IMG/VR virus record: IMGVR_UViG_3300006802_000078
Coordinates: 1-64,000 of that record
From: a virus
Reading direction: 5' to 3' (one strand)
Length of the DNA: 64,000 nucleotides
Shown in pieces: positions 44,621 through 49,943 of this stretch. Position numbers and translations under genes: made by a program. Positions within the stretch are counted from its first letter, which is position 1; every line of letters starts with the position of its first letter. Below the pieces are notes generated by a model. That model was not told the DNA's origin and made no database searches. It saw nothing but the letters and a program-made list of their open reading frames with translations.

Positions 44621-44778
44621 CTCTCGTGGTCAGTCGGCAGTCCACTTGGACCAACGTGTGTTGGTTGCAGGCCCACGCCATTGCCCCACGCGCGGCGTCA
44701 TTGCCGCACGCTCGGCTTCGCACCTGCATTACCCGTGGCTTTAGCCTCAGTTGCCTGCGGTCGAGTTATGGCATCAAG

Positions 44779-45004
44779 TGGTGGAGGCGAGCGGCTTCGA
44801 ACCGCCCGTCGAGTATCGCAACCTCGGATCTGGGGGGCCACGGCTGGGCTCAGGCGCTGGCGCGCTCAGCTCACGGTGTGCATGTGCACCTGCACACCGG
44901 CCAGACGCGCCGTGCCCCGCCCCGGGGCGTATGGGGTAGCCGCAGCAGGCGACCCCCAACAACGAGGATGCACTCGGCGCCGGCGCCACCTGCCGGCCGC
45001 CCCC
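44779..45004 (-). ncRNA. Short tmRNA-like / tRNA-Ala-like RNA (226 nt)
   Basis: 5' GGGGGCG pairs with 3' CGCCUCC-A-CCA including G3.U70; T-arm GGCGG-UUCGAAG-CCGCU; long-range helix 44963-44976 with 44810-44826; begins 6 nt after the upstream stop codon. Confidence 0.75.
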
Positions 45005-45010
45005 GTATGG

Positions 45011-46359: not shown

Positions 46360-46693
46360 CTCCTGTTGTCGGCTCGCTGGGGCCGACGTGTGACCATCGC
46401 GCAGGGGCAGCGGACCATCCCGCTTCCCGCGCTCCCAGGCCACCCACCTGCGTTGCCAGTCGCAGGTGAGCGCTTCGGCACACGAGACATGCTGGCTGGC
46501 CTCGTGCTGCGCTCGTGCCTTGCAGTCACATGACTGCACCTCTCGGGGGAGGGGAAGCATTCTCGGAGACCTTGGCACCCCTGCGACAGCAGGCAGGCGG
46601 CAGCGCGTCCGCTCCCCCGATGGGCGGGCGGGCCCCCAAAGCCGGGTGTTCTTGGCGCGTGGCCGGCGTCACGCGGGAAGGTCAATCACACAT
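46360..46693 (-). ncRNA. Structured ~330-nt leader of the left-arm operon
   Basis: Closing helix 46684-46693/46386-46395 plus at least five hairpins; wobble pairs are G.U on the minus strand. Confidence 0.5.
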
Positions 46694-46749
46694 GGCGCAC
46701 CTCTTGGTGGTGGGGGTGTTCGCGTACGGTCGTGCACTGCTGCGGGCAC

Positions 46750-47195
46750 CTGGTACAGTGTTTCACGTGTTTCATTTTCGCGTGAGACACTGTAAGTGCT
46801 TGGAATCCTGTTCGCGGATCCGTTGTTTTATACCGAGTGCACACCAATGGAGGATTTTTGTGGCGAGCGGAAAAAAGAGGGGACCTCCTCGGGGGGTTTG
46901 TTCGCTTACGGCTCGCCGGATGGCTCCGAAGTGCAACCAGTATTTAGAAGTATAACTAAGTATAGTTATAAGATTACTGATTGCTGCTGCTGCGGCGGTT
47001 GGCGCGGCCCTTCGTGGGCCGCGCTGCCGTGGTTGTAGCCCCCGGCGGGGTAAGCCGAAGCCGAGAGGGGGAGGTGGCGCAACACTGGGGCAGGGCTGCG
47101 CCGTAAGTAGCTGAATATGCGGGGGGTAAGGCAATATGCAATATAGTGCATATACGCTTACCGTGATGCACATTGTATGCGCGGGAGTAAGCGTT
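46750..47195. other. AT-rich non-coding patch with palindromes; candidate replication origin
   Basis: IR 46754-46794; TATAACTA-agta-TAGTTATA at 46951-46970; AGTAT at 10-bp period; IR 47154-47194. Confidence 0.5.
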
Positions 47196-47748
47196 ACCGG
47201 GACAGCTTGTGGCGGATCTCGCTGTAGTCCTGCCACGCGGCCTCACTACGGCCCGCCGCCAGAGCAGACCCCCAAGGTGACACACGCATGCGGACCTGGG
47301 GATCGACAGTCGCCCCCTCCCACGAAGACACGCGCGCTGGCGTCGTCGTAGAGGTTGCGCCGCTGCGGACTACGATGCGCTTCCGCTCGCACATGGTACG
47401 CAGAGCCGCATCCATGAGCGTACCGACGTGCCCCTGCGGTAGCGCGATAGTCAGGGTCACTACGTCATCCCCCTTCGGCATGGCGCGGGCAACCCCCGCC
47501 CACGAGCGAAGCTCGCCCGCCGCCTCCCCTGCCAGGCGCGCGCGCTCCGCCCATGCCTCGTTGTCCTGCACGTCCTGCGCCGCCCGCGCCAAGTGCGGCG
47601 CGCGGTCCTTCCTCGCATGCGCCAAGCGCAGAGCGGCCCCTTCGGGATCCCTGACTTGGGCCCTACACTCCGCCGCCCCCTGCGCGAGCAGGTCACACGC
47701 AGAGAGCAGCACGGCGCGAAGCTGCGCCGGCGTCGCTTCGATTACCAT
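47194..47748 (-). CDS. Hypothetical protein
   Basis: 184 aa; SD AGGAGG. Confidence 0.65.
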   Translation of the reverse strand: MVIEATPAQLRAVLLSACDLLAQGAAECRAQVRDPEGAALRLAHARKDRAPHLARAAQDVQDNEAWAERARLAGEAAGELRSWAGVARAMPKGDDVVTLTIALPQGHVGTLMDAALRTMCERKRIVVRSGATSTTTPARVSSWEGATVDPQVRMRVSPWGSALAAGRSEAAWQDYSEIRHKLSR

Positions 47749-47789
47749 TACGCACCCCTCCTGGTTGCACTTTCGCTCTATCTGTTGAC

Positions 47790-48910
47790 CCTACGCGCGG
47801 GCACACCCCTTCGATGGGCTGGCGCGTAGTCGGAGCCGAAAGCAAAGACATAAGCATAGGGCCAGGGCAGCTTAGCTGCCCTGGCCCATTCGGGTTTGGC
47901 GAGCCCAGCAACGGCGCGAGGGCGCCGATACCAGCTTGACCGTGGGTTATCCCCGCGGCCCCTGTCATCGCCCGCTAGGGCTCTGGTTCGAAGCTGCAAT
48001 ATCGACCAATGGGCTCCCCGTATCGTTTCCGGATCATGGCCCATTGTTCCCTCGTGGGTGCGCCGTTGCGGGGCCCACCTACACTGTCGGCTTCGGGATA
48101 GCCGACGATAGCGACCGATCGCCGTTGTCAATGGCGACGCGCTATCTGTTTATGTGTGTGAATACCGTTCAAACGACCGCCGCCGGTATCCTACCCGGTA
48201 CGCTACGCCGTTTCGTCGCTTCACCCTACTGTATGTGAGGCGGTATTGGCGTCTATCCGTCGAGACGCGCTACCCACCGCCGATCCTTTGCTACCCGCGC
48301 CACGATCCCGCTTCCTGCCCTCTGGTTCCTTTCACCGGGAGCGCCGGGGCCGCGGGCTACTGCCACCATGGGGGCCGCCTACGCTTGTGAAGGGGGCGCC
48401 CATGGCGCGGGGTAGCTGCTACCGCCGTCGCTGAGGGAGGGGGGGTCGTGGGGGGTGTCAAAGGGCGCAAGCCGACTACCTGTCGCCGACCCTCGGGGGC
48501 TACCTCCGGGGCGACGGATCCCGCTATCGAGCGGCCGAGTGGACCCTTGGGTGATGCCATAGGGCGCGCACGTCGAGACCCGGATCCCCACTGGTGTCCC
48601 GGGCGACAGCTACAGAGGACGGAGGGAGGGCTTACCGGGTAGTCGCGCACGGGGCGGAAAGTGACGCGTCGTCGCTTGCCGTGGCGTTACTGCCTTCCTC
48701 CTCCCGTGCGCCGACATAGGGGCCGAAGCCCTTGCTGCGGGTGGGGGGCGGATCAGATCACCAGACAGGGGACACCGTCCGCTATGCCGCGGAGGAGGCG
48801 CCTGTCTGTACGGGTAGGGGCTGAAAAAGACCGAAGGGGGCCGAGCGGGGGTTAGCCGTCCGCCCTCTGAGGAGGACCAGGGAGTCCCCTGGTCCTGCAC
48901 AGAGGGCAGC
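47790..48910. ncRNA. Candidate large structured RNA or ssDNA element (~1.1 kb, about 20 helices)
   Basis: No credible ORF; nearly contiguous 6-13 bp inverted repeats and nested long-range stems. Confidence 0.6.
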
Positions 48911-48913
48911 GGG

Positions 48914-49549
48914 CTACCAACCGCCGACCTTGCGGGAGGCCGCCTTGCGCCGCGCGCCCGGGACAGGGATCGAAGCGTTCCGACCGCGGAGGTGACTGTC
49001 CATCGCGGACAGCGCCTCCCCGTGGGAGCGGTTGCTGCCGTTGACGGCGACGGCGGCCGCGATCGCGTGGGTGATCGCCTCCTGAGCTTCCTGGTAGCTG
49101 GGCGCCGCGGTGATCAGGCGGAGGATTGCGGCCTTGACGGCGGTACGCTCCGCGCCGACCGTGGAACCATCGAAGTAGGCGATCGCGCTCTTGCCTTCAT
49201 CGGGGAGGTAGACCAGGAACGCAGGATCGGCGGGGAGCGCGGAGCGGGCCTCGTCCTTCCCCAGCTTGGCGCCGACGCGGTAGCGGCCGATCATGCTGGC
49301 GACGGCGGGATCGGCGGGATCGGCGGAGGGGGCCACGGTGTCCAGGGTGGCCCGGAGGTTGGCGATCGTGTCGTCACGATCGGCGATCGTCGCCAGGAGG
49401 GCGGCGATCGTGGCGTCGCGGTCGGCGATCGTCGCCAGGAGGGAGACGGCGTCGGTGTTGGTGTCGGTGTCGGCAGGGGCCGGCGCCACGTCGACGACGA
49501 CGGGGGCGGAGGGGGCGGAAGCGGCGGTGGTGCTGGTCTTGCGGGACAT
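48914..49549 (-). CDS. Hypothetical early protein with a 14-aa tandem coiled-coil repeat
   Basis: 211 aa; LLATIADRD.TIA twice (42-bp period, 49380-49443); SD AGGA; promoter upstream. Confidence 0.8.
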   Translation of the reverse strand: MSRKTSTTAASAPSAPVVVDVAPAPADTDTNTDAVSLLATIADRDATIAALLATIADRDDTIANLRATLDTVAPSADPADPAVASMIGRYRVGAKLGKDEARSALPADPAFLVYLPDEGKSAIAYFDGSTVGAERTAVKAAILRLITAAPSYQEAQEAITHAIAAAVAVNGSNRSHGEALSAMDSHLRGRNASIPVPGARRKAASRKVGGW

Positions 49550-49600
49550 CGGGTCATCCTACGGGGTGCGGGGCCAGGGGAGATCCGTGGCCACGGCAGG

Positions 49601-49629
49601 AATGTACTACCGCGCTATGGCGCTGGCAA
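49601..49629 (-). promoter_or_regulatory. Leftward sigma70-type promoter TTGCCA-17-TACATT
   Basis: Near-consensus boxes with exact spacing at the strand-switch point. Confidence 0.75.
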
Positions 49630-49675
49630 GGCGGTACGCGCAACCCTACCCCGAAAGGAGAAGGAACGCGCGCGA

Positions 49676-49715
49676 GGCAGCCTGGCAGCCCGGCAGGGGG
49701 GCAGCTCGGCAGCTC
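49676..49715 (+). repeat. Five tandem 8-bp GGCAGNNN repeats
   Basis: GGCAGCCT GGCAGCCC GGCAGGGG GGCAGCTC GGCAGCTC. Confidence 0.8.
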
Positions 49716-49888
49716 GATCGCGGCGGGGGGTTCCGCCAGGCGGCCGACGGAGGGGGGGTCGGCCAGGATGCCGGTGCCGCCGTGGTCGTAGCTGAGGGGG
49801 AGGGGGCATTCCGCCCGCGCGGGACGTGACCGCTACGCGTGGTGCCCCAAAAATCCGCAGCACCTCCCGCCCCTCCCACCATTTATTC

Positions 49889-49919
49889 GTTGCGCGCCAC
49901 GCAACCAGCATGCTACTCC
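49889..49919 (+). promoter_or_regulatory. Rightward promoter TTGCGC-18-TACTCC with GTTGC-N7-GCAAC operator (49889-49905)
   Basis: gttgc gcgccac gcaac, preceded by an AT-rich tract. Confidence 0.7.
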
Positions 49920-49943
49920 TCACCCACACTCCAGGTGCCAGCC

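Follow-up and report, generated by a model that had tools for sequence, protein, structure and literature searches.

The interval 47790-48910 of the phage DNA considered here raises the question of what a densely coding genome keeps in 1.1 kb of DNA without a gene. A first-pass annotation, made from the letters alone, had described this interval as an ORF-free element tiled with about 20 helices, and had proposed for it either a single large structured RNA of a new class or folded DNA serving as a signal close to a genome end or origin. The inverted repeats on which this proposal was built can all be read in the DNA, where they had been placed or within a base of there. The record comes from freshwater metagenomes, measures 91,625 bp and is rated complete by CheckV; the window, i.e. 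the whole stretch of DNA that was analysed, comprises bases 1-64000 of this record and has a GC content of ~69%. The coordinates of the features discussed below are collected in Table 1.

Genome context and non-coding status of the interval

In this genome, genes are read leftward up to 49549 and rightward from ~49945, and the two gene sets diverge from a promoter region at 49550-49920. The recognisable products include a portal, a large terminase, a distantly N4-like DNA polymerase, helicases and a protein of 4447 aa. Seven sequencing runs carry the stretch, all of them of freshwater DNA, with no RNA runs listed; contigs from four other runs are identical to it and hold no natural variants.

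By sequence comparison, the phage lineage is isolated, with no close relative in the collections searched. The element DNA found no homologue by blastn among 50,697 phage records, IMG/VR yielded no relatives when searched with both flanking proteins and the DNA polymerase, and in a collection of 5.8 billion proteins both flanking proteins and the portal each recovered only themselves. The top match of the portal, obtained with HMMER among 1.84 billion representative proteins, shows 31% identity, and genome assemblies provided two more portal relatives, labelled Planctomycetota and Myxococcaceae, at 28-30% identity. Each of these two MAGs holds a contig of ~70 kb that encodes the portal in question, and in both cases a complete phage genome from the same broad group has probably ended up in the bin.

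The interval itself was also searched for in related records and loci. Blastn of the element DNA in five near-complete related records (CheckV 92-100%) was empty, as was nhmmer over ~0.95 Mb of related loci, and a covariance model built on the single sequence of the folded domain P3, when run on four related records, 84 loci and the phage genome itself, recovered nothing but P3. Moreover, a crude scan for gaps between ORFs in three complete related phages revealed no comparable gap of >1 kb, a result of little weight given that these relatives are too distant.

The interval, taken as 47750-48910, is non-coding, as had been described. From 47750 to 48900, GC is equal in all three codon phases, against a GC3 of ~0.9 in the flanking genes, and none of its 10 longest ORFs matches Pfam or PHROGs at E <= 0.1. 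Genome-wide, only two stretches of >1 kb lack codon periodicity, 46411-47521 and 47671-49021, and these are separated from each other by the 5' part of the 184-aa gene. One candidate gene was considered and rejected: a plus-strand GTG ORF at 48448-48642, which follows a G-rich run resembling a ribosome-binding site, has a GC3 of ~0.70 vs ~0.9 in real genes.

Both genes that flank the interval lie on the minus strand and are thus read leftward. The 211-aa gene has only weak matches in PHROGs, one of them to a transcription-regulator family (E 0.0023). The 184-aa gene starts with an ATG at 47748 and exhibits codon-type GC periodicity over 47400-47748; neither relatives nor a functional lead were found for it, and the protein atlas gave no usable lead on the functions of the neighbouring genes. 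As a separate observation, 42-nt tandem repeats within the 211-aa gene (49347-49430) encode a repeated LLATIADRD peptide, and at 48940-49122 and 49257-49446 the plus strand, antisense to this gene, folds with z -5.7 vs ~-2.5 to -2.8 for the sense strand.

Table 1. Features of the interval and of its two flanking genes
Feature	Coordinates	Strand	Remarks
Predicted promoter TTGCCA-17-TACATT, before the 211-aa gene	49601-49629	-	Found by consensus scan and by the phage's own pattern
211-aa gene, opening gene of the leftward operon	48914-49549	-	GC3 ~0.9 in frame
Stop-codon stem-loop of the 211-aa gene	48830-48935	-	Arms 48845-48882 and 48887-48924; inner perfect 10-bp stem 48873-48896
Spacer without folding excess	48151-48829		Holds most helices of the first-pass annotation, the proposed pseudoknot pair and eight GCTAC words
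AT-rich patch just upstream of P1	48141-48177	-	Without a promoter consensus match
P1 hairpin	48107-48146	-	Abuts P2; in MFE and centroid of every minus-strand fold
P2 hairpin	48086-48106	-	Abuts P1; in MFE and centroid of every minus-strand fold
P3 domain, ~183 nt	47898-48079	-	Closing helix of ~24 bp (9+10+5 pairs), three-way junction inside
P4 hairpin, perfect 13 bp, 3-nt loop	47859-47887	-	Terminator-like; U-rich tail 47838-47858
P5 hairpin in the leader of the 184-aa gene	47791-47829	-	In folds of both strands
184-aa gene with AGGAGG ribosome-binding site (47757-47762)	47194-47762	-	Directly downstream of the module

Distribution of the folding excess along the interval

When folded over its full 1146 nt, the region lies 50 kcal below its dinucleotide shuffles on the plus strand (z -5.2) and 56 kcal below them on the minus strand (z -7.6). 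Seven control windows of equal length deviate from their own shuffles by only +6 to -31 kcal, which makes the full-length region stand out as unusual. Furthermore, eight of the 20 best local structures are found within 46.9-49.4 kb, which is 3% of the genome, and the locus is thus enriched in stable folds.

The dissection of the interval showed where this excess resides. It is present at 47785-48150 (z -4.3 plus, -6.9 minus) and at 48830-48935 (z -5.4 minus, -6.0 plus), while the 695 nt at 48151-48845 fold at the level of shuffled sequence (z -1.5 plus, -1.0 minus), with 300-nt windows in this middle part scoring between 0 and -1.3. The excesses of the pieces sum to the whole-length value, so that no long-range architecture is needed to account for it. 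Folding excess is found in only about a third of the 1.1-kb stretch, and the description of an element tiled with helices fails: the DNA is hairpin-rich locally, and the excess does not extend beyond the two segments named.

Predicted pairs common to the folds of both strands amount to 108 of 120 in the left part and 84 of ~230 in the middle, and the first of these figures means that the helices of the left part represent real Watson-Crick complementarity. Perfect inverted repeats of at least 8 nt were counted in the same way against shuffles: the left part has four where 1.1 are expected (P 0.02) and the right end two (0.1 in shuffles), 48151-48500 has one (1.3 in shuffles), and 48501-48845 has a marginal excess with four (1.2 in shuffles, P 0.03). 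The crossing pair 48593/48769, which had been put forward as a pseudoknot, is an 8-mer match occurring at chance rate, 3.3 such matches being expected in 695 nt.

These data bear directly on the proposal of one giant structured RNA of ~1.1 kb, on either strand and of a new class comparable to GOLLD and ROOL. The whole-length z values would suit such a molecule, and the plus strand is an outlier in the genome regression of energy on GC (z -4.8), with a full-length centroid close to the MFE; however, two local pieces together account for the whole-length excess, leaving ~700 of 1146 nt at shuffle level on both strands, an outcome that the first-pass annotation had itself named as refuting its proposal, and the regression advantage of the plus strand stems from its G+U-rich composition and vanishes against shuffles, in which composition is controlled. 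Since, in addition, neither a promoter nor a terminator frames a unit of 1.1 kb and Rfam offers no match, the giant RNA is considered very unlikely.

The minus-strand module and its candidate roles

What remains of the proposed giant RNA is a candidate module of ~300 nt of structured RNA on the minus strand, for which the folding models provide moderate statistical support. In minus-strand order, its elements are P1, P2, P3 and P4 with its U-rich tail, followed by P5, the AGGAGG and the ATG of the 184-aa gene. Under RNA rules, the module without P4 (47892-48150) reaches z -6.47 on the minus strand vs -2.54 on the plus strand, the reverse of the plus-strand leaning of the first-pass annotation, while DNA energy rules give similar values for the two strands (z -4.3 and -4.0). 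As the strands are equivalent under DNA rules and not under RNA rules, an RNA function, if any, would belong to the minus strand.

Within the module, P3 is, by its predicted fold, the best-supported structured element of the interval. On its own, it has z -6.45 on the minus strand, its MFE structure makes up 23% of the ensemble and the centroid is identical with the MFE; the plus strand of the same segment is ordinary (z ~-2.9, MFE frequency 0.004). In MFE frequency (maximum of the random windows 0.15), ensemble diversity and GC-adjusted energy, P3 beats all of 1581 random 186-nt windows of the genome. Because random windows cut helices, all locally closed structures of the genome were also listed, and among these ~33,000 structures P3 ranks 4th by adjusted energy and, among the best scored, second by shuffle z.

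The key control came from this list. The most extreme local RNA fold of the genome, at 2390-2584 (z -6.9, MFE frequency 0.25), is coding sequence: it lies on the minus strand, which is the sense strand there, inside an 836-aa DUF927 primase-like gene, and may itself be a real mRNA structure. A few further local structures reach z ~-5.7. The strand asymmetry of local structures picked in this manner resembles that of P3, whose own asymmetry is in part a selection effect. P3 accordingly belongs to the extreme tail of the genome but, comparably extreme folds occurring in coding genes, is not certified by folding statistics.

These comparisons also allow the interval to be regarded as a neutral spacer, in which only the two strongest hairpins would matter, for transcript ends or stability, and everything else, P3 included, would be the chance tail of DNA with 66-69% GC. 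The ~700 nt at chance level speak for such a spacer, coding genes do contain comparably extreme local folds, and the interval has neither a demonstrated conservation nor an Rfam match. Nevertheless, 1.1 kb of idle DNA would be odd where the whole genome has just two stretches of this kind, and P3 attains its z value and its rank above every random window without any input from the two big hairpins, which makes the neutral spacer rather unlikely.

The two big hairpins differ in their surroundings. Perfect hairpins of at least 9 bp number only ten genome-wide, of which P4 is the longest and the sole one with a U-rich tail, while the inner 10-bp stem of the other, shortly beyond the point where the 211-aa gene stops, is also among the ten; no U tract follows the latter stem-loop on either strand. 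The tail of P4, with five U among nt 1-10 and seven among nt 11-20, misses strict U-tract rules (5 U in 8; 6 U in 10). Canonical terminators are almost absent genome-wide, so there is no local standard by which P4 could be judged.

As regards transcription, the promoter predicted before the 211-aa gene is the likely source, going by its sequence, of minus-strand transcripts entering the interval. The pattern of this phage's promoters, TTGC..-17/18-TA..C., is often overlapped by a GTTGC-N7-GCAAC palindrome; all six of these palindromes (12709, 14362, 21114, 49889, 53638 and 62210) overlap a promoter-like site of that form. The GC-TA-N-N-C form of the -10 element presumably recalls alphaproteobacterial (Caulobacter-type) promoters, and is taken as a hint of the host only. 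Near the interval, the pattern is matched at 49629-49601 (leftward), 49890 (rightward) and 47141-47112 (leftward); inside it, no promoter was detected on either strand with the general or the phage's own consensus. Both flanking genes and the two matches closest to the interval point leftward, in keeping with a minus-strand transcript. The AT-rich patch upstream of P1 falls in 48077-48176, which ranks fifth from the bottom in GC among the 100-nt windows of the genome, and is a possible promoter.

A different kind of promoter was also considered, namely a set of N4-like hairpin promoters serving a virion-carried RNA polymerase, with P4 extruded from the DNA. The DNA polymerase is distantly N4-like, the 4447-aa protein has the size of a virion protein and the loop of P4 measures 3 nt, but searches of the giant protein revealed no RNA-polymerase domain, P4 is the single hairpin of its kind, without a repeated promoter motif, and its 13 bp greatly exceed the 5-7 bp of the stems in N4 promoter hairpins. 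This explanation is extremely improbable.

Alternatively, the interval could act at the level of DNA, as a replication origin or an array of protein sites. The helices would then be palindromic sites or single-strand initiation structures, with GCTACC-N-CGCCGA-like iterons beside an AT-rich patch, and the good folding of 47892-48150 on both strands under DNA rules is consistent with this. The word GCTAC occurs on the plus strand of 48202-48913 in eight copies of the same orientation, vs 1.3 in shuffles, with one copy in the other orientation, but the enrichment is lost after correction for 1024 words. Several copies extend to GCTACC-N-CGCCGA(C/T)C, the last one overlapping the stop codon of the 211-aa gene, and three of the six CTAC-N-CGCCGA matches in the genome fall within the interval; words of this type are suggestive of binding sites. 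Set against the at least three direct repeats of ~17-22 bp of an iteron origin, the loose GCTACC-N-CGCCGA word does recur, at a loosely periodic spacing, and the repeat search produced only weak two-copy families and no clean direct-repeat family.

The wider setting of the interval gives little support to the suggested DNA signal close to an origin or genome end. In its favour, the windows of lowest GC in the genome fall in the interval and in the stretch beside it, and this adjacent stretch is hairpin-rich as well; however, the replication genes are at least 38 kb away, no initiator gene was identified near the interval, and GC skew shows no origin signal there. Nested long-range helices round a three-way junction are, moreover, atypical of duplex binding sites, and assembled contigs of other runs span the interval. 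A DNA-level role is accordingly held to be distinctly unlikely.

The adjacent stretch deserves mention in its own right. Located at 46580-47195, across the 184-aa gene, it is non-coding and hairpin-rich (z -6.6 minus, -4.7 plus) and holds the two lowest-GC windows of the genome, with AT-rich palindromes at 46940-46975 and 47100-47190; the leftward promoter predicted at 47141-47112 falls within it. As a candidate for an origin or a promoter cluster, it outranks 47790-48910.

The explanation preferred here, tentatively and with a probability put slightly below even, is that the leftward operon has in this interval an untranslated spacer of composite make-up, with the minus-strand module P1-P4 as its core, functioning as a small RNA or as a read-through leader. 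In a minus-strand transcript, the spacer would separate the 211-aa gene, read first, from the 184-aa gene, read second. The stop-codon stem-loop would probably serve as a 3'-end or processing hairpin, and the next ~700 nt would be free of structural constraint. The module would follow, from 48146 down to ~47840, with P1, P2 and P3 and, at its end, P4, the strongest hairpin of the genome, and the U-rich tail; the 184-aa gene would begin ~90 nt further on, P4 acting as a putative terminator. Two options may be envisaged for its output: it could yield a stable small RNA, or it could be a leader (attenuator) that would set read-through into the 184-aa gene and beyond. The ~700-nt middle is left without a role by this explanation, and no promoter was found for a self-contained RNA gene.

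A bolder version takes P1-P4 (~48146 to 47840, minus strand) to be exactly such a self-contained RNA gene of ~300 nt, from an undescribed family in a deeply divergent lineage of freshwater phages, which together with 46580-47195 and a tRNA look-alike at 44779-45004 would form a minus-strand RNA island controlling the switch from early to middle transcription; this is regarded as doubtful. The look-alike (44776-45006, minus strand) lies 2.8 kb from the interval and exhibits an acceptor stem with G3.U70, a T-arm-like hairpin and an encoded CCA. In its predicted fold (z -2.25), the closing helix is acceptor-like, and the other elements are a D-arm-like hairpin, a long rod and the T-arm-like hairpin. 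Neither ARAGORN nor Rfam recognised it, and ARAGORN found no tRNA in the whole 64-kb window.

Should the ~300-nt module be a working RNA, an orphan structured RNA would join the growing list of phage non-coding RNAs, coming from a phage lineage without a cultured relative and with a top portal identity of ~30%, and would also be a candidate site at which early transcription is controlled. For now, the analysis is chiefly of corrective value. Helices are seen everywhere in sequence of 66-69% GC, two thirds of the proposed giant RNA fold at the level of shuffled sequence, and equally extreme folds inside coding genes mean that folding energy alone is no certificate of an RNA gene.

Comparison with known systems

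The first systems to be compared are the large ornate RNAs of phages and prophages. GOLLD (RF01998) and ROOL (RF03087) are families of 600-800 nt that were defined by covariation and are now known to form multimeric cages (PMC5737381; PMC12286853). The interval resembles their settings in being a gene-free, hairpin-rich phage stretch of a densely coding genome, with a tRNA look-alike not far away. It differs from them in that the supported fold comprises ~300 nt, that the excess covers only ~370 nt and 100 nt and not a continuous fold of at least 500 nt, and that the element is an orphan with no sign of multimers. No covariance-model match to either family was obtained, even at E <= 10.

The element matches no Rfam family, and the whole 64-kb window gave no match at gathering score. 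Between 47500 and 49200, lowering the threshold to E <= 10 brought up only matches far below gathering score, mostly to miRNA-precursor hairpin models and mainly at 48839-48929. Group I and group II introns were also considered and rejected: no Rfam intron model matches at E <= 10, and the gene downstream starts from an ATG with a ribosome-binding site of its own.

The layout of leaders and attenuators of the riboswitch or T-box kind is a closer parallel. On one and the same strand, a folded domain (P1-P3, 48146-47898) is followed by a strong hairpin with a U-rich tail (P4, 47887-47838), and then, after ~90 nt, by a ribosome-binding site (AGGAGG, 47762-47757) and a gene (ATG at 47748). The differences lie in the imperfect U tract and in the aptamer, for which the module has no match to a known Rfam family at gathering score; the lone cis-regulatory match listed at E <= 10 is a serC leader on the plus strand (48765-48822), with 17.6 bits vs a gathering score of 35. 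Inspection by eye for an antiterminator pairing found only a competing pairing of 4-6 bp, which is not convincing.

Likewise, P4 and the stop-codon hairpin are comparable to intrinsic terminators or 3'-stabilising hairpins, being GC-rich perfect stems at the end of folded or coding units, and depart from them in that the stop-codon hairpin has no U tract and the U tail of P4 is imperfect. A further lead is given by the put RNAs of HK022, in which two neighbouring stem-loops render RNA polymerase resistant to terminators. P1 and P2 abut each other in a similar way, between an early promoter on their upstream side and a terminator-like hairpin; the likeness is one of layout, and P1 and P2 lie ~1.4 kb from the promoter. 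Thus, by analogy with these systems, the module, which lies outside GOLLD, ROOL and any Rfam family, would work like a leader/terminator unit or a small phage RNA.
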